64,000 bases of DNA from IMG/VR virus record IMGVR_UViG_3300018080_000117, positions 72,433 to 136,432 of that record; one strand, written 5' to 3'. Under the pieces are notes generated by a model, which did no database searches, was not told where the DNA came from, and was given only the letters and a program-made list of their open reading frames with translations. Source of the stretch: a virus. This document shows positions 1,584 through 9,203 of this stretch, in pieces. The translations under genes were made by a program, and so were the position numbers. Positions within the stretch are counted from its first letter, which is position 1; each line of letters begins with the position of its first letter.

Positions 1584-2016
1584 AGCACGTAAGGAGTTTG
1601 CACGAGCCCAACTAAGATTTCTAAGACAAAAAGGTGTCACTGATCAAGAACGGTTGAGTCGTATTTTCAAAGCAGCCGGACCAGGACAAATTAGAGAAGC
1701 GTGGAAATTGGCAAACTCCGAAACCTCTCAAGAGCGTATCGACCTTTTAGACGTAGTGTTGACGGGCGTTTGCGGATCTCAAAATTTTGGACGATCGAGA
1801 ATGGAATCTGTTTTGAAAGAATGCGGTATATACGTTCCAGAAGCACCAAACACGAACTGCTTTTTTCGTGTTCTCGATGGAGCACTTGAAATTTTAGTTC
1901 CTGGTTCGTACGAGTTTGAAGAAAAAGATTTGGAACAGATTAGAGGTGGAGGCCAACAAAGCAATGATGACATCGAAGCAACGCAAGCTGAAGAAAGCGA
2001 AGAAGATGATTATTGA
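1567..2016 (+). CDS. hypothetical protein with acidic C-terminus
   Basis: 149-aa ORF overlapping the end of dnaG. Confidence 0.7.
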   Translation: MEITAEARKEFARAQLRFLRQKGVTDQERLSRIFKAAGPGQIREAWKLANSETSQERIDLLDVVLTGVCGSQNFGRSRMESVLKECGIYVPEAPNTNCFFRVLDGALEILVPGSYEFEEKDLEQIRGGGQQSNDDIEATQAEESEEDDY

Positions 2017-2134
2017 GGAACTAAACCGAAGTTACCACAAATGGGCTTGCGAAAAAGACGATAAAGAAACAACTGTAACTTTGTCACGCCGAACCCACAC
2101 AACCGTGGTCCAGTACCTAGACGCACTAATCTAG
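2006..2134 (+). CDS. small hypothetical protein, C-terminus possibly altered by the IS insertion
   Basis: ATG overlaps the upstream gene end; stop lies at the GC-content shift. Confidence 0.45.
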   Translation: MIIEELNRSYHKWACEKDDKETTVTLSRRTHTTVVQYLDALI

Positions 2135-3707
2135 TCTCACCGAATGCTAAGCTGTGCTTTCGATGAAGACTAAGACCAAAAGCTTCGTTTGCGAGTTGCC
2201 TCTGGACCCCACAAGAGAGGATGAACGCAGACTGTTTGTTTGCTTCGAGGTCGCACGGCAAATCTACAACGCGTGTTTGGGTGAAGGACTGAGACGACTC
2301 CGGCTAATGCGTGAAAGCCGTGACTGGCAGCGGGCTCGGGCTCTGCCAAAAGGTCATGAAAGAAGCACATTGTTTCGATCTTGTACGATCCGCTTTGGAT
2401 TCCGAGAGTATGATCTGCACGCATACGCCAAGCAGTTCAATCGTGGCTGGCTCGGCCAGCATATCGACATCAACACAATCCAGAAGCTGGCAACCAGGGC
2501 GTATTGTTCTCTCAAGGAACACATGTTTGGCAAGCGAGGTCGACCTCGCTTCAAAGGCTATCGGGGCCTGCAGTCTGTGGAGGGCAAGACCAACGCGTCG
2601 GGAATTCGTTGGCGAGATGGTGTGGTTCATTGGAAAGGCTTGTCATTGCAAGCGTTGCTGGACCCGCAGGACAAAGCTGGTTGGCAGGCAGAAGCTCTGA
2701 GCCGCAGAACTAAGTACTGCCGCATTGTGCGGCGCCAGGTCCGAGGAAAGACCCGCTGGTACGTTCAACTGGTGCAAGTTGGACTGCCGCCCCCTAAGCA
2801 ACACGAGCGCACCAAGGCAGTCGTTGGTTTGGATGTCGGACCTAGCACCATCGCTGTGGTGGGCGAGCAAAGAGCCGTTCTGGAGCGTTTCTGTCCGTCG
2901 GTCGAGCAGCCCTGGCGCCAAACGCGTCGGATTCAAAGAGCCATGGACCGCTCGCGGCGGTCCACCAACCCGGACAACTACAACCCAGACGGCACCGTCA
3001 AACCCGGCCGCAAAAGATGGAATCGTTCCGAGCGGTACAAGAGGCTCGCAGCCCAGCGGGCAGAGAACGAACGCCGATTGGCCGCAGAGCGCAAGCGAGC
3101 CCATGGGGAACTTTCCAACCGCATTCTGGCGCTGGGCACGACGGTCAGAACTGAGAAGTTGAGCTACCGATCCTTCCAGAAGAACTTCGGCAGAAGCGTC
3201 AAGGTCCGTGGCCCTGGGATGCTTATCGACATGCTGCGCCGCAAGGCTGAGAGTGCTGGCGGCCAGCTCGAGGAGTTCCCAACGCAACCGACGAAGCTGT
3301 CTCAAGTTTGCCATGGGTGTGGCCAGACCAAGAAGAAGCCCTTGTCGCTTCGGACCCACGAATGCGAATGCGGAGTGGGTCCGGTGCAGAGGGACTTGTA
3401 CAGTGCGTTCCTGGCTTGCTTTGTAAGCCAGGCCAAGCTCAACGCCCGGCAGGCCCAAGAGGCCTACCCGGCTGCGGAACCGCTGCTGCGACGGGCGGCG
3501 TTGAGCTTCAATCAATCTGCGAGCAGAAGGGCTTCGGCTGCTTCTCGCGTCAACACAGACGTTAGAGCGGATCGTCCGTCGAAGGGGGTCAGGAAGGCAT
3601 CGAGGCCGCAGACGTCGTACCGGCGTGGTTCCCATGTCCGGGAGGGCTGCGGAGAGATGCGTTCTGTTTCCTCCAGAACCCCCGGGCTTTAGCCCTGGGG
3701 AGGTTCA
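2135..3707 (+). mobile_element. IS200/IS605-family tnpB-only (IS1341-like) element; left end approximate
   Basis: Abrupt GC-rich block; tnpB; right-end hairpin AGAACCCCCGGGCTTTAGCCCTGGGGAGGTTCA ending in TCA; no tnpA. Confidence 0.85.
2163..3692 (+). CDS. tnpB: RNA-guided endonuclease TnpB
   Basis: ARQIYNACL, GRPRFK, RuvC-I VGLDVG, RuvC-II RTEKL, Zn finger CHGC..CEC, RuvC-III QRDLYSA. Confidence 0.95.
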   Translation: MKTKTKSFVCELPLDPTREDERRLFVCFEVARQIYNACLGEGLRRLRLMRESRDWQRARALPKGHERSTLFRSCTIRFGFREYDLHAYAKQFNRGWLGQHIDINTIQKLATRAYCSLKEHMFGKRGRPRFKGYRGLQSVEGKTNASGIRWRDGVVHWKGLSLQALLDPQDKAGWQAEALSRRTKYCRIVRRQVRGKTRWYVQLVQVGLPPPKQHERTKAVVGLDVGPSTIAVVGEQRAVLERFCPSVEQPWRQTRRIQRAMDRSRRSTNPDNYNPDGTVKPGRKRWNRSERYKRLAAQRAENERRLAAERKRAHGELSNRILALGTTVRTEKLSYRSFQKNFGRSVKVRGPGMLIDMLRRKAESAGGQLEEFPTQPTKLSQVCHGCGQTKKKPLSLRTHECECGVGPVQRDLYSAFLACFVSQAKLNARQAQEAYPAAEPLLRRAALSFNQSASRRASAASRVNTDVRADRPSKGVRKASRPQTSYRRGSHVREGCGEMRSVSSRTPGL

Positions 3708-3711
3708 GTCC

Positions 3712-3763
3712 AGGGTCTCATGAGGGTAGGCCCTTAAGCCTTCGGGCAACCCTCCCTTCTTCC
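3712..3763 (+). ncRNA. putative pseudoknot RNA element, copy 1
   Basis: AGGGTCT/AGGCCCT stem; loop GAGGGT pairs with ACCCTC; internal GCC-TTCG-GGC hairpin; TTCTTCC tail. Confidence 0.55.
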
Positions 3764-3827
3764 TTTCTCGCTTCCTAAAAGCTAAGCAAATAGCCAAGGC
3801 ATAATCAACCAATCAAAGGAGATCATT

Positions 3828-4409
3828 ATGCGCTTGCTGCTTCGTTTTCTAAGTTGGTTGTCTTACGGCACAGGCCTTTGGCACTGGTGGAGTCGTTTCT
3901 ATCGCAGACATTTAGAAGGCAATGGAAAAAAATCGGTCACCTTGCCAGTCGCAGACACTTGGGAGAACCTTGAACAAATAATCGGTAAATTAGAATGGAC
4001 ACCTGATAAGTTTTGGCCGCACTTGTTTGACGTCTGCCAATCTGCTGAAGCGACTTGGTACAAGCATTTGCAAGGCCGCCCCGCAGGTGACTGTGATGAT
4101 CATGCATTTTTAGCCGCGTCGATTATCGAAAATAGCTTTAACCTTTCTACGAAAGCAACCTTTGTGGGGCTTCTTACCGTGCTTTATGGAATAAAAGGTC
4201 ATACTGTTTGTGTGTTTAAGTACATAGACAACAATGCTACGAGGTACGCACACCTTAGCAACTGGTACAACGGAAAGATACAAAAAGGATTCAACTGCTT
4301 AGAAAACGTAGTTACTGAAATATTGGATTGCAAAAACGAACAACTTGTTCGTTGGTCATTGACCCGAATAGAGCCTTTTACGCTAATCGAAAGCAAAACT
4401 AAGGTTTAG
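3828..4409 (+). CDS. transglutaminase-like cysteine protease family protein
   Basis: GDCDDHA followed by GHTVCVF; AAGGAG RBS. Confidence 0.65.
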   Translation: MRLLLRFLSWLSYGTGLWHWWSRFYRRHLEGNGKKSVTLPVADTWENLEQIIGKLEWTPDKFWPHLFDVCQSAEATWYKHLQGRPAGDCDDHAFLAASIIENSFNLSTKATFVGLLTVLYGIKGHTVCVFKYIDNNATRYAHLSNWYNGKIQKGFNCLENVVTEILDCKNEQLVRWSLTRIEPFTLIESKTKV

Positions 4410-4419
4410 TGAGGAATAC

Positions 4420-6765
4420 ATGGCTGTCATTACTTCTAACGCTTCCGGCAATTGGTCAGCAGGCGGTACGTGGGTAGGTGGTGTTGCTCCTGCGTCCGGT
4501 GACTCTGCGGTTATCGCTAACACTCACGTTGTAGACATTGACGGAAATATTACGGTGGGTCCTGCCAGTGGGCTCGATCCTAACCCAACTAGCGATTGTT
4601 CGGTGTACATCCAAACTGGTGGAACCCTTCGAGTTCCGCATACCGTAGCAGGTAACTACACCCTTACGCTTCGCGGTCCAATCTACGTAGCTACTGGCGG
4701 TACGTTTACGATCGGTACCGACAGCGATAATCCAATTCCTAGTAACCGAACTTTCGATATTCTCTTCGACGACATTACGGTCAACAATTGGATAGCAGGG
4801 TCGTTTAAGATCTACGGATACCCGTCTTACCACATGGCAGACGCCGATTCTTATCGTTCTAGAATTGACACAGACGCTGGAGCAGGTGCAGGAGCTACGC
4901 TAAGTTTGCCAGATAGTGTGGATTGGCAAAGTGGAGACACCGTATTGGTTGGCACAGGCGGCGACCCTGGCCATGCGATCACAGGTGTAGAAAAGGTTAC
5001 TCTTACTGGCAAGACAGACGCAAGCACCTTTACTGCCAACCTTGGGTCTAATCACTTTGGAGATGCAAATTACGGGGATGTACTAGTAAACATAACTAGA
5101 AACGTAAACATCGATATCGGTGGGGCTTACCAGTACCAATTTGCAAATCGGGATAGTACAGTTTCATTTGTTAGAGACGCAGAGTTTGACCTTAACTGGT
5201 GCTGCTTTAGCAACGGAGGAAGAAGCACAGAAGCTCTTTTTGAGTTTGGTCTGTTGAATGCTAGGTACGCTGCAGACAAGGTAAGCTTCAATCACGTATG
5301 TTTCGACACAATCCGATCGGCTACGGTACCTTGGATCAACATTGAGAACTGTGGGATCGATCCTGCGGACGGGTATCAATTTACAGATCTCGTTTTTTAC
5401 GACTCCTACATTTGTATTCGAGTACAAGACGGTACAGGCTGGAGGATAAACGGAATAACAAGCATTGATGCTAATAGCACACACCTAAATTCTATAAACA
5501 CAACCCTAGACTCAACAGGGATTGAAGAGGTTTTGAATGCTTGGTTTGTGTACGACGGTATTGTGTTCGATGACATCATGCCTAGTTTGGTGACTAACTT
5601 CAAAATCCATGGGGTTGACTATTTTGCTAATGTATCTTCAACCACTTCTAGTGACAACCAACGAAAGTCTAAATGGGATACTGGAGAAATTTTCGCTTTG
5701 CAAAATGTGGCAGGAACGTTGATAGGTACGGGGTCAGACAATCCTTTGAATTGGTTTTTCAAAGACGTTGAATGGAAATCTTGTCTTGGGCATTGTTTGA
5801 ATTACAACGCATGCTCCGGTACTTCGGTGTTTGAGTTTGTTGGTTGTTCTTTTGACGGCAACAATACTGGCAATAACAACGCTCGTGCAGCAATCGCAAT
5901 TAACCAAGCTCCTGGATCTTCGTTAATTTTTCGTTCGTGCAACTTCGGAACAACAACTCAAAATTATCGGTGGAACACCATATTCAACACACACCCACGA
6001 GGCGCTTTGTCTAGACTTCTTTTTTCTAATTGCGTAATCAAAGAACCTGCCAACTGGTCACCTACCACAACCTATGACTGGTACGGAGACGGCGACAGAG
6101 AAAGACTGTGGGCGCTTGGACTAAATTCTTACCAATCGCAATACGACAGAATGCAACTTGGAATTAACGGGTCATATGAATTGGTTGACTGCCAATTACT
6201 AAACGCAGCCGACGCCGATCAATGGAGCACTTTGTATCCGAACACCGATTCCGTAGCCTTTATACACGGCGGTGGGGAGATGCACAAAGTAAGTTCTGGA
6301 GAAGCCGCCGGTTATCAAGATGGAACTTATGCCCGAAAGTTTTTGCCGTTTAACCCAGGCATGCGAACTTATGCAACCTATGCGAGACCGTTGCTAATCC
6401 CACTAACGAGCGGGGAACAGATAACAGTAACCTTAGACTTCAAGAAAAATTTAGCAGTGCAATCTGATTTTCGCTTACCGAAACTGCACATGGAAGGCTG
6501 TGGTATCTCAACGCTAGACACTATGCAGGATATTCAAAACACCTGGGATACCCTTACAGTAACTGGAACTGCTAGCTACACAGACGTTGTTCGGGTTACG
6601 GTATCTTGTTGGGCCATGGTCGACGATTCATACATATTGAGCGCCGACAACCCAACAAGACAAGCTACTACGTCAACGGTAGGTGCTTACAACTATCCTT
6701 ACGACCCTGGGGATTCAGACAACCTAATTTTATACTGTGATAAGCTTACCGTAACGATTAGTTGA
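4420..6765 (+). CDS. G8-domain / beta-helix protein, probable virion surface or spike protein
   Basis: N-terminal SGNWS...TW.GG..P..GDSAVI G8-like start; repeated F..C.F beta-helix rungs; Gly/Thr/Asn-rich. Confidence 0.6.
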   Translation: MAVITSNASGNWSAGGTWVGGVAPASGDSAVIANTHVVDIDGNITVGPASGLDPNPTSDCSVYIQTGGTLRVPHTVAGNYTLTLRGPIYVATGGTFTIGTDSDNPIPSNRTFDILFDDITVNNWIAGSFKIYGYPSYHMADADSYRSRIDTDAGAGAGATLSLPDSVDWQSGDTVLVGTGGDPGHAITGVEKVTLTGKTDASTFTANLGSNHFGDANYGDVLVNITRNVNIDIGGAYQYQFANRDSTVSFVRDAEFDLNWCCFSNGGRSTEALFEFGLLNARYAADKVSFNHVCFDTIRSATVPWINIENCGIDPADGYQFTDLVFYDSYICIRVQDGTGWRINGITSIDANSTHLNSINTTLDSTGIEEVLNAWFVYDGIVFDDIMPSLVTNFKIHGVDYFANVSSTTSSDNQRKSKWDTGEIFALQNVAGTLIGTGSDNPLNWFFKDVEWKSCLGHCLNYNACSGTSVFEFVGCSFDGNNTGNNNARAAIAINQAPGSSLIFRSCNFGTTTQNYRWNTIFNTHPRGALSRLLFSNCVIKEPANWSPTTTYDWYGDGDRERLWALGLNSYQSQYDRMQLGINGSYELVDCQLLNAADADQWSTLYPNTDSVAFIHGGGEMHKVSSGEAAGYQDGTYARKFLPFNPGMRTYATYARPLLIPLTSGEQITVTLDFKKNLAVQSDFRLPKLHMEGCGISTLDTMQDIQNTWDTLTVTGTASYTDVVRVTVSCWAMVDDSYILSADNPTRQATTSTVGAYNYPYDPGDSDNLILYCDKLTVTIS

Positions 6766-6789
6766 CTTTTTCAAAAAGCACGGTACAAT
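6762..6789 (+). promoter_or_regulatory. sigma70-like promoter
   Basis: TTGACT-N16-TACAAT, with TTCAAAAA in the spacer. Confidence 0.65.
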
Positions 6790-6795
6790 TAATTT

Positions 6796-6889
6796 GCCTG
6801 CGGTCGATGTTCCCCCCCACATTGGTCCAGGCTTAGGCTGTGAGGGCCAGCCACAAGGTATCCGTAGGGTACCAGCCCTCAATTCTTCC
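6796..6889 (+). ncRNA. putative ~95-nt sRNA: C-rich-loop hairpin plus pseudoknot copy 2
   Basis: GCCTGCGGTCGATGT/ACATTGGTCCAGGC stem with TCCCCCCC loop; then GGCTG/CAGCC, TGAGGGC/GCCCTCA and GGTATCC/GGGTACC; has its own promoter and no ORF. Confidence 0.6.
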
Positions 6890-6890
6890 G

Positions 6891-6918
6891 TTGAAAATTC
6901 CAAAAAATCAGGTAGGTT
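6891..6918 (+). promoter_or_regulatory. possible promoter for the dehydrogenase operon
   Basis: TTGAAA-N16-TAGGTT with an A-tract spacer. Confidence 0.35.
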
Positions 6919-6952
6919 TTAAGCACACTCAAAAACTCTTGCGAGGACAGGC

Positions 6953-8182
6953 ATGCACTCAGTTTCGGTTGTTGGGTTAGGGTACGTAGGATTGCCTTTG
7001 GCTCTGGCGTTTGAGGCTGTAGGGTTGCGCGTTTGGGGGATTGATCACGATCTTGAAAAAGTACAAATGCTCAACCGCAAAAAATCTTACCTAACCACAG
7101 TCCACGACAACCGATTGCTTTTCGCTTCTGGGTTTCATGCCACAACTAAAAAAGCAGTAATTGCTGAATCCGCTGCGGTTATTGTTTGCGTTCCAACACC
7201 AATCGACGAAAACAACGAACCTAACCTTAGTTACCTTAAAGACACTTGCCAACAAATTGCCGAACACCTAAACGGACAGCTCGTGGTAATCGAATCAACA
7301 AGCTATCCCGGAACAACCGAAGAGATCGTCAAACCGATCTTAGACTCTTCAGGAAAGCATTACAGCTTAGCTTACTCTCCCGAAAGAGAAGACCCCGGCA
7401 ACCCTCATTACAACGTGTTCAACACGCCTAAGATCGTAGGAGCGGACGATAAGCTAAGCTTGGACCAGGCTATCGAACTTTACGAAAAGGTGTGCAAAAC
7501 CGTAGTTCCGGTAAGTTCCTGCAAAGTAGCGGAGATGGCCAAGTGCTTGGAAAACGTCTACAGAATGGTCAACATTAGCCTGGTCAACGAACTAAAGGTT
7601 TTTTGTGACTGCGAGGGGATAGACATTTGGGAAGTAATCGAAGCCGCTAAGTCAAAGCCCTTCGGCTTTCAAGCCTTCTATCCAGGCCCCGGTACTGGAG
7701 GGCACTGCCTGCTACCTGATTCGATGTACCTCGCAGCCAGGGCCAAGCAAATCGGTGCTAAGGTCAATTTCATCGAGCTGGCGGGACAAGTCAACAAGTC
7801 CATGACATGGTTTGTATTTAAAAAAGCTCGTCAGGCCCTCAAGGAAGTTTTGGACAAGGACCTAAAAGACTCAAAGGTTTTGGTAATTGGACTGGCATAC
7901 AAACCCAATATCAACGATACCCGCGAAAGTCCCGCATTCCCGCTTATCAAGGAACTAAAGTTTTTCGGGGCCGACGTGTGTTATCATGATCCATTTGTCC
8001 CCGTGTTCCCAAAAACCCGCAATTATGAGTTCGACCTTGCTTCGATCGACATTTGTGAGGACCACGGTATTGACTGCGCGATTTTAGTGACGGATCACGA
8101 CAATCTAAACTACTTAGAGATTTCTAAGTTTCCTGTCATTGTAGACACCCGCAACCGTATTCCTGCTGCCTTCAAAGCCTAA
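6953..8182 (+). CDS. nucleotide-sugar 6-dehydrogenase (UDP-GlcNAc dehydrogenase, WbpA/WecC-like)
   Basis: GLGYVGLP, VCVPTP, ESTSYPGTT, YSPERE, FYPGPGTGGHC, GLAYK..D.RESP. Confidence 0.93.
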   Translation: MHSVSVVGLGYVGLPLALAFEAVGLRVWGIDHDLEKVQMLNRKKSYLTTVHDNRLLFASGFHATTKKAVIAESAAVIVCVPTPIDENNEPNLSYLKDTCQQIAEHLNGQLVVIESTSYPGTTEEIVKPILDSSGKHYSLAYSPEREDPGNPHYNVFNTPKIVGADDKLSLDQAIELYEKVCKTVVPVSSCKVAEMAKCLENVYRMVNISLVNELKVFCDCEGIDIWEVIEAAKSKPFGFQAFYPGPGTGGHCLLPDSMYLAARAKQIGAKVNFIELAGQVNKSMTWFVFKKARQALKEVLDKDLKDSKVLVIGLAYKPNINDTRESPAFPLIKELKFFGADVCYHDPFVPVFPKTRNYEFDLASIDICEDHGIDCAILVTDHDNLNYLEISKFPVIVDTRNRIPAAFKA

Positions 8183-8202: not shown

Positions 8203-8643
8203 ATGCTAGTTCATCCACACCTGCACAAGGCGATGGAAAGCCTAAGAACCTTTGCGGATAAGAAGCACCTCGACTTTGGCTGTATGGACTTAGGAACGGC
8301 GTACTCACACCTACGGGTCATGCGGTACAACACAATCGCAGAGATGATTCGAGAAGACCCCGATCTTTTCAGAAAGTGTGTGCGAGACGGAACCAAACCA
8401 ATCAAAACGCTTCGCAACACATTGTCTTCAACAAAGACAGACTTCATAGTGAACACTCTGCGAAAGAGACGGTGTACAAAGACAGAGCTTGCTGAACTTT
8501 TGCACGAAGAGTTCAACGATGGCCGCACCATCCGAGACCTTATTGGGTACGTCAATGAACGTTTCGTTGCGCTAAAAAAACGTGGAGTAAAAGTCATCAA
8601 AGTTGGTGCTAAGGGACGCAAAGGAGTTTACGAAATCAAATGA
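8203..8643 (+). CDS. hypothetical protein with C-terminal winged-helix-like domain
   Basis: C-terminus resembles that of 14248..15273. Confidence 0.6.
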   Translation: MLVHPHLHKAMESLRTFADKKHLDFGCMDLGTAYSHLRVMRYNTIAEMIREDPDLFRKCVRDGTKPIKTLRNTLSSTKTDFIVNTLRKRRCTKTELAELLHEEFNDGRTIRDLIGYVNERFVALKKRGVKVIKVGAKGRKGVYEIK

Positions 8644-9203
8644 AAGGATTCGATCTAATCTACGTTGATCCTCCCTGGTCATACAAGGACACGTGCTCTG
8701 CGGGTAAACGAGGCGCTGTTCACAAGTACCCAGTGATGAGTTTAGAAAACATTATTAGCCTTCCTATTTGGAAGCTGGCATCAGACAACTGTCTTTGTGC
8801 TACTTGGGGGACGTGGCCTCAACTACCAATCGTTTGCCAAGCACTAGAGGGCTGGGGGTTTACGTACAAAAGCGTTGGGTTCGTCTGGGTCAAGACAACC
8901 AAAAACAAAAAGCTTCATTGGGGGATGGGCAACTGGACACGCGCAAATAGTGAGTTTGTTTTGTTAGGCGTGCGAGGAAAGCCAAAACGTGTGGACAAGG
9001 CAATTCATTCGATTGTGCATTACCCAATTTCGAAAACACATTCTCGAAAACCTAATGTAATACGAAAAAAGCTGGCTAGGCTTGTAGGCAACCCTGAACG
9101 CAAAATCGAATTGTTTGCCACAGATAAGGTTCCTGGTTGGCGGTGTACAGGGTTTGAAGTAGATGGTCGTGATATTCGAGATGTCTTGAAAAGGATAAAG
9201 TGA
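8640..9203 (+). CDS. MT-A70 family adenine methyltransferase
   Basis: YVDPPWSY, WGFTYKS.GFVWVK, G.WTRANSE, HSRKP, IELFA. Confidence 0.92.
   Translation: MKGFDLIYVDPPWSYKDTCSAGKRGAVHKYPVMSLENIISLPIWKLASDNCLCATWGTWPQLPIVCQALEGWGFTYKSVGFVWVKTTKNKKLHWGMGNWTRANSEFVLLGVRGKPKRVDKAIHSIVHYPISKTHSRKPNVIRKKLARLVGNPERKIELFATDKVPGWRCTGFEVDGRDIRDVLKRIK

Follow-up and report, generated by a model that had tools for sequence, protein, structure and literature searches.

Two sites of a candidate pseudoknotted RNA element in a viral genome, one of them probably split by a TnpB transposon

Two intergenic sites share one pseudoknot architecture

We analyzed a stretch of 64,000 nucleotides (hereafter, the window) that forms the last 64 kb of the IMG/VR virus record IMGVR_UViG_3300018080_000117 (136,432 bases, judged 74% complete), focusing on two intergenic sites, copy 1 (3712-3763) and copy 2 (6836-6889), where an initial annotation had described one pseudoknot-like RNA architecture built from differing stems. 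The best explanation of our results is that the two sites are paralogous copies of one plus-strand structured RNA element, that this element belongs to an uncatalogued family and has a 3'-terminal role, and that copy 1 was interrupted by an insertion; taken whole, this account is tentative, standing at slightly less than an even chance, and its parts are graded where they are discussed.

At both sites the sequence reads exactly as annotated, with every helix formed by standard pairs (S1 is the helix that the initial annotation called P1, S2 is the pseudoknot helix, and all features lie on the plus strand unless stated). In copy 1, whose core spans 3712-3780, S1 (3712-3718/3728-3734) has seven pairs including one G-T, closes a loop of CAT followed by GAGGGT and is followed by an A-ended linker, S2 (3722-3727/3749-3754) has six pairs made by ACCCTC with the complementary loop, the inner hairpin (3738-3740/3745-3747) has 3 bp around a TTCG loop and is followed by an A, and the tail TTCTTCC (3757-3763) begins two bases past S2. 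Copy 2 (core 6836-6906) repeats this layout with other stems: a five-pair S1 (6836-6840/6848-6852) closing a loop of T plus GAGGGC, a six-pair S2 (6842-6847/6875-6880) with the 3' strand GCCCTC, an inner hairpin (6857-6863/6867-6873) of seven pairs including one G-T, and TTCTTCC (6883-6889), again two bases past S2. The sixth S2 pair is T-A in copy 1 and C-G in copy 2, which confirms that the pseudoknot changes between copies while staying paired. Gapless similarity between the copies runs 17 nt past the tail, to 3780 and 6906 (repeat family D1, 34 nt in register, 71%).

The element extends beyond the limits first given, adding a 5' hairpin whose loop is a run of C and, for copy 2, a promoter. 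The hairpin, taken from folds, spans 6796-6832 with 14 pairs (three of them G-T), one bulge and the C7 loop TCCCCCCC, and the pseudoknot begins 3 bases past it. The promoter is a sigma-70-like TTGACT-16-TACAAT (6762-6789; 10/12 matches) that overlaps the stop codon of the upstream open reading frame (ORF) and predicts a start near 6796, the first base of the hairpin; it is the only plus-strand promoter-like site in 1900-7100, a region not enriched in such sites (4 found, 4.0 in shuffles). The RNA would then consist of a 5' hairpin with a C-run loop, followed by an H-type pseudoknot in which S1 closes a GAGGGN loop that pairs with a downstream NCCCTC, the two joined by a connecting loop that starts with A and optionally bears a hairpin, with the pyrimidine tail TTCTTCC two bases on. 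Both the pairing and the folding energies point to a plus-strand structured RNA, because the opposite strand would have A-C mismatches in place of the G-T pairs (those of copy 1 in S1, those of copy 2 in the inner hairpin and, three of them, in the 5' hairpin) and because copy 2 folds more stably as plus strand than as the other strand (−35.5 versus −29.2 kcal/mol).

As a separate observation, the 13-mer TCCGTAGGGTACC of the copy 2 inner hairpin (6861-6873) has a second occurrence 2.9 kb ahead of the window (record positions 69513-69525), in an intergenic region that is densely folded and lies at a strand switch; chance would give about 0.004 such matches.

Is the likeness of the copies more than chance?

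Pseudoknots of this size are not rare by themselves: a generic H-type descriptor of these dimensions gave 19 matches on one strand and 13 on the other, where five shuffles gave 7-13 per strand. The case therefore rests on what exceeds chance, namely the shared anchors and the stems that have changed yet remain paired. Two matches to the composite pattern TGAGGG..CCCTCNNTTCTTCC are present in the window, and no more in the whole 136,432-base record; 100 shuffles of the window yielded none. In 20,000 shuffles of the variable segments, with the anchors unchanged, S1 reached or exceeded its observed length in 0.46% of cases for copy 1 and in 4.9% for copy 2; for the inner hairpin the figures were 88% in copy 1, where it has 3 bp only, and 0.45% in copy 2. 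Support for S1 is good in copy 1 and marginal, taken alone, in copy 2, and the inner hairpin has support in copy 2 only.

MAFFT alignments of the two copies, and of the distant relative L230 (see below) with other relatives, were not structural; covariance-model-based alignment was used instead, along with a script that detects helices from complementarity. With copy 2 alone as its basis, a covariance model recovered copy 1 as the second of 16 matches at E≤10 in the window (12.5 bits, E 0.043). In the two-copy alignment, which was fitted to the model itself, 20/20 cells pair, and among 12 pairs four are changed on both sides and one on one side; S2 adds one further two-sided change (T-A versus C-G). 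Compensatory support from two sequences alone is weak to moderate.

The initial annotation had also proposed a search for further copies. Across the record, the descriptor with the tail included finds only the two sites, and a model of both copies (R2) finds no third copy in the window, where its next best match scores 9.0 bits. The best R2 match in the other 72.8 kb (14.2 bits, E 0.048) was rejected, being antisense within an 821-nt minus-strand ORF, as was a third CC.CACA..TGGTCC site, which lies within a 637-aa ORF.

Comparison with catalogued RNAs

Nothing in Rfam matches the motif, in agreement with the initial annotation, which could assign it to no known family. At the gathering score the 64-kb window has no match; at E≤10, positions 3500-7100 return only HgcC, SNORA67 and Bacillus-plasmid, all noise and none on the motif core, and the short stretches 3700-3800 and 6790-6915 return only PhotoRC-I (E 9.9) and RAGATH-5 (E 6.8), again noise. 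The podophage relatives described below gave nothing relevant in Rfam. The element works like no catalogued family; we do not claim its absence from print, no literature search having been made for the motif.

Three known RNAs invite comparison. In the pistol ribozyme (Rfam RF02679), the loop of a hairpin pairs with a strand further downstream in a pseudoknot of 6 bp, and the hairpin leads into an A-rich linker. These two features are shared by the element, but the P2/P3 helices and the cleavage-site junction of pistol are not. The annotated absence of the pistol core is borne out: there is no covariance-model match, a closed hairpin follows the linker, and after NCCCTC come only two bases and the pyrimidine tail. 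A self-cleaving ribozyme, whether pistol-like or of a new class, would accommodate the loop pseudoknot with its A-rich linker and also the podophage form, a compact double pseudoknot. We nevertheless consider it very improbable, given that no Rfam ribozyme matches the short stretches even at E≤10, that the strand order departs from that of pistol (a closed hairpin between the linker and the 3' pseudoknot strand, nothing pairing after it) and that no conserved candidate cleavage site is apparent. Self-cleavage, one of the functions first listed for the element, is not supported.

The preQ1-II riboswitch is an H-type pseudoknot with a hairpin in its last loop and a dispensable 5' hairpin, and the element follows the same strand order (5' hairpin, S1, S2, hairpin inside loop 3). 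It differs in that the 3' strand of S2 is not the ribosome-binding site, ending 74 nt upstream of the ATG at 3828 and 73 nt upstream of that at 6953, and in having neither an Rfam match nor a gene association that hints at a ligand. Finally, the RsaE/RoxS-type small RNAs with C-rich loops, compared by features, resemble the element in having a promoter, an exposed C-run hairpin and a 3' domain with structure (the RNA of copy 2 would measure about 90 nt); unlike them, it lacks a canonical terminator, and in the podophage form the C-run is paired with a G-run.

Relatives in podophage-like contigs

A viral anchor-pattern scan, which demanded TGAGGG, CCCTC and the tail only, found a related motif in the loci L152 and L153 (the same contigs as its hits L108 and L104), intergenic and co-oriented with its neighbors. 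There, a hairpin whose loop starts with TCCCCCC is followed ten bases on by a 5-bp S1 (ACCCG/CGGGT) that closes AT plus GAGGGG, and then by an A-started loop, an unpaired A, CCCCTC, an AA spacer as in copy 2, and TTCTTCC. The sixth S2 pair is in a third state, G-C, as against T-A and C-G in the window. In L152 the neighbors are a DUF3310 gene, an Hjc-like nuclease gene and a family A DNA polymerase, and the same site, between the DUF3310 and nuclease genes and upstream of DNA polymerase A, is occupied in L152-L159 and in L230. The L152-type host phage is unrelated to the phage studied here: only one of 15 ORFs of at least 90 aa is shared, at 24-27% identity.

When loci of DUF3310-gene relatives were screened with a descriptor of a 5-bp S1 and a 6-bp Watson-Crick S2 around GAGGG, 9/80 passed, and both window copies pass the same descriptor. 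The podophage S1 occurs as ACCCG/CGGGT, GCCCG/CGGGC, GCCTG/CGGGT and, in the distant L230, CCATG/CATGG, all paired, and the TTCTTCC tail is present in one of three podophage lineages. These RNAs carry three further helices, each altered on both strands from lineage to lineage: one joins an upstream strand to the connecting loop (TGTAGAT/ATCTACA; TTGGCTGAT/ATCAGCCAA in L230), one is the stem of the C-run hairpin, and in one a G-run on the 5' side pairs with the C-run (GGGGGG/CCCCCC, GGGAGG(G)/(T)CCTCCC, TGGGGG/CCCCCG). For L152 the C-run hairpin was read from the alignment, the script having picked a different C-run there. In an alignment of eight close podophage sequences 210/210 cells pair and three pairs are compensatory, against at most 51% in slid controls, though the structure was derived from one of those eight sequences, which inflates the paired percentage.

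The window element and the podophage RNA have in common a C-run-loop hairpin, a 5-bp stem closing an (A)NGAGGGN loop, a downstream NCCCTC after an A, and a two-base spacer, with an identical AA-TTCTTCC in L152/L153. On the features that define the podophage RNA (C-run hairpin, 5-bp S1, a GAGGGN loop preceded by 1-3 nt and followed by none, 6-bp S2 with NCCCTC, and the A ahead of the 3' strand), the window element agrees, the C-run hairpin being seen in copy 2. They differ in that the podophage connecting loop has no hairpin of its own and pairs with a distant upstream strand (the local hairpin of copies 1 and 2 sits where the podophage form has this long-range helix), in that the podophage C-run is paired with a 5' G-run and TGGTCCAGG is lacking, and in the unrelated phage. 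We treat the two as one motif class, although convergence could still explain the likeness, and view the element as a member of a candidate uncatalogued phage RNA family, a simple pseudoknot here and a double pseudoknot in unrelated podophage-like genomes.

Other candidates from the scans were set aside. Apart from L104 and L108, the 34 stretches of the first viral scan were chance matches or plain hairpins, L112 lying within an 817-aa ORF, and none of the 30 stretches of a metagenome pattern scan was convincing (in L142, GAGGG is part of a different hairpin). The last viral scan, whose pattern favors any GAGGG/CCCTC hairpin, returned 16 stretches: L104 and L108 again, and others that were not counted. 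Among these, six prophage-like loci have a C7-loop hairpin and then a plain 12-bp GAGGGGCG..CGCCCCTC hairpin and CATTCTT, three have an S1 of 4 bp and lie between convergent genes behind a canonical terminator, and five more were also discarded. The six loci (L232, L236, L240, L241, L243 and L245) are from related prophage-like records in which an 8-bp C7-loop hairpin is followed after four bases by a perfect 12-bp GAGGGGCG..CGCCCCTC hairpin and CATTCTT; this two-hairpin site is terminator-looking and has the same two-part layout as the window element.

In the podophage contigs a block, TTGACAAAGT(C/A)CAA, is conserved before the nuclease gene, even in L230 (L152 1622-1655, L154 1181-1214, L230 2406-2432). 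To judge from its sequence context it may be more than a -35 box, since in L230 it cannot be a promoter for the annotated ATG.

A TnpB element very probably splits copy 1

The sequence evidence indicates that copy 1 was very probably split by an IS200/IS605-family tnpB element spanning 2109/2114 to 3708. This is drawn from five lines of evidence: the identity of the TnpB, the right-end boundary, a jump in GC content, the resemblance of the left flank to the stretch before copy 2, and the guide architecture.

The ORF at 2163-3692 (509 aa from ATG 2163, or 512 aa from GTG 2154) is by homology an IS200/IS605-type TnpB, that is, a member of the TnpB family of RNA-guided nucleases. Family-profile evidence is mixed, with Pfam Cas12f1-like_TNB (PF07282) above its cut-off (28.4 bits, cut-off 26.3) and NCBIfam guided_TnpB below (88 bits, cut-off 100), and there is no detectable sequence match to solved TnpB chains. 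Relatives are plentiful, with 2877/8000 scored candidates at E≤0.001 (best non-self 65% identity), and residues D227, E334 and D414 (numbered from 2154), in motifs presumably corresponding to RuvC I-III, are intact and form a D/E/D set invariant in 25 aligned sequences. From the 521 relatives that a genome scan gave, 80 loci were retained; a single genome contributes dozens, as an insertion sequence would, and upstream of many relatives lies the C-terminal end of an IS200-type tnpA. Cultured phages, too, have annotated TnpB genes (13 records with a match), and taken alone the TnpB is an ordinary representative of its known family. Beside this stand the tnpB elements L012-L062 of one Alphaproteobacteria genome, dozens of near-identical related copies, most of them behind a second shared repeat and with short tandem duplications (CCATAGGAGAG) at the left boundary.

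The right end, which is also the 3' end of the guide-RNA scaffold, lies at 3672-3708 as a hairpin followed by GGTTCAG. The same hairpin and ..CAG follow tnpB in 73/80 relatives' loci, column conservation is 1.00 up to the final G of ..CAG and 0.26-0.41 from the next base, and tnpB copies within one genome diverge right after it. Copy 1 is thus transposon flank, since by comparison with the 80 relatives the right end stops at 3708. The left end (2114-2162) is short and degenerate, with a small hairpin (2117-2134) and the GAATGC of relatives' left ends. The marks of an autonomous IS200/IS605 element, a Y1 tnpA and a left-end hairpin like that of the right end, are missing: no tnpA was found between 2016 and 2163 or elsewhere in the window, and the right-end-type hairpin occurs once in the record and not at the left end. 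In composition the element is foreign, with a GC content of 51-62% against 41-47% in its flanks.

That the insertion went into copy 1 follows from the resemblance of the DNA left of the element to the stretch before copy 2. The left-flank remnant (2095-2113) matches 6812-6830 (repeat family D14, 74% over 19 nt), each with a C-rich run, CACA and then TGGTCCAG (2106-2113 = 6823-6830); free local alignment is marginal (p 0.07 by shuffles), yet the resemblance is persuasive because the match ends exactly at the junction. The 5-bp direct repeat TCCAG stands at both junctions (2109-2113 and 3709-3713), and joining the site with one TCCAG removed gives TGGTCCAGG, the same as in copy 2. In contigs of the probable source DNA run, no joint across the element, and hence no form free of the insertion sequence, was seen. 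The initial annotation had placed GTCCAGG at or near both 5' ends; the heptamer is indeed present at 3708-3714 and 6825-6831 (nine times in the window, 5.67 expected), but in copy 1 it belongs to the junction and guide region, its initial G being the last base of the transposon. The reading of copy 1 as the 3' end of the preceding gene likewise gives way: copy 1 adjoins that gene because a TnpB transposon inserted into copy 1, and the association is secondary.

According to PMC10097598, the guide of a TnpB RNA lies directly after the right end, is 16 nt long in ISDra2 and has about 12 critical first positions. As this published architecture puts the guide directly after the right end, positions 3709-3724 are the predicted 16-nt guide here, by analogy, covering the 5' strand of S1 and half of the GAGGG loop. 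With the pseudoknot now directly after the right end, the TnpB RNA would direct cleavage of the uninterrupted copy-1 site. The guide 16-mer has no other site with two or fewer mismatches in the 136-kb record, and copy 2 would not be a target, as it is absent even from sites with five or fewer mismatches.

Could the motif instead be part of the TnpB guide-RNA scaffold, with copy 2 an orphan guide RNA? Copy 1 lies 20 nt after tnpB, and TnpB guide RNAs contain a pseudoknot, as PMC10097598 describes. We find this barely credible, since the element ends at ..CAG in 73/80 relatives with conservation collapsing at the next base, the motif begins at 3709-3712, beyond the 3708 boundary and so outside the scaffold, and it follows the right end in 0/80 loci. 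Moreover, the record has the scaffold hairpin a single time, not ahead of copy 2, and copy 2 matches only 7/12 of the first guide positions and is not within five mismatches. Compared with ISDra2-type TnpB, the inserted element shares a TnpB ORF with the RuvC D-E-D residues and a zinc-finger/TNB region, an RNA scaffold overlapping the gene 3' end and the right end, and a guide taken from the flank directly after it (features as described in PMC10097598). It differs in protein length (509-512 versus 408 aa), in having no tnpA in the window, a short atypical left end and a 5-bp junction repeat, and in that the motif studied here is the flank of the element, not its scaffold.

What the element may do

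The initial proposal of a 3'-end module survives as the leading candidate function, though in altered form: no plus-strand site in 1900-7100 was called as an intrinsic terminator, and the gene before copy 1 is a transposon. We infer that the element is the 3'-terminal domain of a short RNA or of the 3' untranslated region (UTR) of an upstream gene, a reading that is possible yet distinctly short of an even chance. Copy 2 would be part of an RNA of about 90 nt with an exposed C-run, started at the promoter 6762-6789, or otherwise the 3' UTR of the upstream gene, and a coaxial S1-S2 stack beside the pyrimidine tail would help to form or protect the RNA 3' end just before the next promoter. In favor of this, the conserved tail stands two bases past S2 and similarity between the copies ends 17 nt beyond it. 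In L152 the base right after the tail opens a TTGACA-16-TATAGT site (11/12, with TG), L154 has a strong promoter-like site past an extra hairpin, and in copy 2 a weaker TTGAAA-16-TAGGTT (6891-6918; 8/12, below the scan threshold and read from the sequence) begins one base after the tail. The phage may use promoters of its own, because an ORF at 2-883, open at the window start, matches phage RNA polymerase sigma factor families (phrog_351, E 1.2e-27).

Alternatively, the element could be a cis-acting 5' leader of the downstream genes (3828-4409 on; 6953-8182 on) that controls translation, mRNA stability or antitermination, possibly by C/T-rich strands switching between the GAGGG loop and the ribosome-binding sites. 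Its position suits a leader as well, with the cores ending 64 and 63 nt before the next ATG (3828 and 6953), copy 2 directly after a promoter and followed by no terminator-like site, and no usable promoter between motif and next gene in L230. Nonetheless, the spacers to the next ATG are not similar between the copies (p 0.74), the minimum-energy folds of both leaders contain no pairing of a ribosome-binding site with CCCTC or the tail, a strong promoter-like site separates motif and gene in L152 and L154, and the motif-ATG distance varies among podophage relatives from 34 to about 80 nt; a leader role is unlikely on balance, though it keeps a real share of the probability.

A role at the level of DNA, either as a promoter-upstream or operator element or as direct repeats bounding the 3.1-kb two-gene cassette 3828-6765, would account for copies that are direct repeats around exactly two genes without relatives, for a tail that abuts a -35-like hexamer in copy 2 and L152, and for an AATTCT-C-rich block that in L154-type loci stays beside TTGACA despite the hairpin inserted after S2. 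It is improbable in view of the compensatory stems with strand-specific G-T pairs, which indicate selection on RNA. A small protein-coding frame through both copies could likewise explain conserved letters: one frame is open through both (in copy 2 from TTG 6794 to 6922, 42 aa), the conserved blocks differ in spacing by 3 and 6 nt, and four differences fall at third codon positions with the residue unchanged. This we regard as extremely improbable, for copy 1 lacks an in-frame start codon both with and without the insertion, the copy 2 TTG falls where the transcript is predicted to begin and has no ribosome-binding site, and among 1.84 billion representatives a full HMMER search with the 42-aa product found a single match, to repeats in a 5845-aa protein. 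Nor does a frame explain stems that are fully paired yet wholly different, and the podophage relatives keep the helices, not the frame.

Returning to the tentative account of a 3'-terminal RNA element split by a TnpB transposon, several points weigh against it. Within the phage there are two sequences only, whose pairing and change score is equaled by 36/500 shuffles, and the inner hairpin of copy 1, just 3 bp, is of the kind that most shuffles reach (88%). The podophage link was found through a fixed-anchor pattern, which makes part of the likeness a product of selection, and L154-type relatives have a hairpin, not TTCTTCC, directly after S2. A position before a promoter is not general, as the L230 site after the motif overlaps the annotated ATG and cannot be its promoter, and the distances of 64 and 63 nt to the next ATG fit a 5' leader too. 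Three terminator-like sites were found in 1900-7100, all on the minus strand and none on the plus strand; the tail is a poor T-run (4 T in 7), and the helix beside it has 6 bp unless stacked on S1, which is not the form of an intrinsic terminator. As to the insertion, the left end of the element is atypical (about 50 nt, without the family hairpin), and the TCCAG repeat found at each junction is unexpected, target duplication not being anticipated for the IS200/IS605 family. For copy 1, moreover, no counterpart of the 5' hairpin can be reconstructed from the flank to the left.

A wider reading would have the motif represent a widespread new phage RNA family whose core, a pseudoknot stacked on a hairpin beside a pyrimidine tract, acts as an unconventional pseudoknotted terminator (3'-end-forming or exonuclease-blocking) that ends short C-loop RNAs in replication modules, and whose constrained sequence is used by TnpB for homing between co-infecting phages. 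We put this forward as a speculation that is unlikely to hold in full; TnpB is treated as a homing endonuclease in 10.1101/2023.11.20.567912.

Neighboring genes and implications

The genes 3828-4409 and 4420-6765, both on the plus strand, form a 3.1-kb cassette that is flanked by the two copies inside the replication module, and neither has a family match in Pfam, NCBIfam or PHROGs; the 193-aa product (P0003) has one near-identical entry only in 5.8 billion clusters. The same co-directional block contains an MT-A70 methyltransferase (8640-9203) and a UDP-glucose/GDP-mannose dehydrogenase (6953-8182). Searches of the viral collection for close relatives of the phage returned none for P0001, P0003, a 149-aa ORF or the left-flank 31-mer, and one weak match for the dehydrogenase; among cultured phages the module had no match, and a search for a tRNA-like gene found none.

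Should the family hold up, it would add an uncatalogued structured RNA, several of whose helices are compensatorily supported, to those of phage replication modules, and would provide a defined substrate for learning how phages end or stabilize short transcripts without canonical terminators. The insertion, for its part, would be a natural case of a TnpB guide drawn from a folded, constrained RNA gene, which is relevant to the way these elements find homing sites that are safe and persistent in the genomes of phages.

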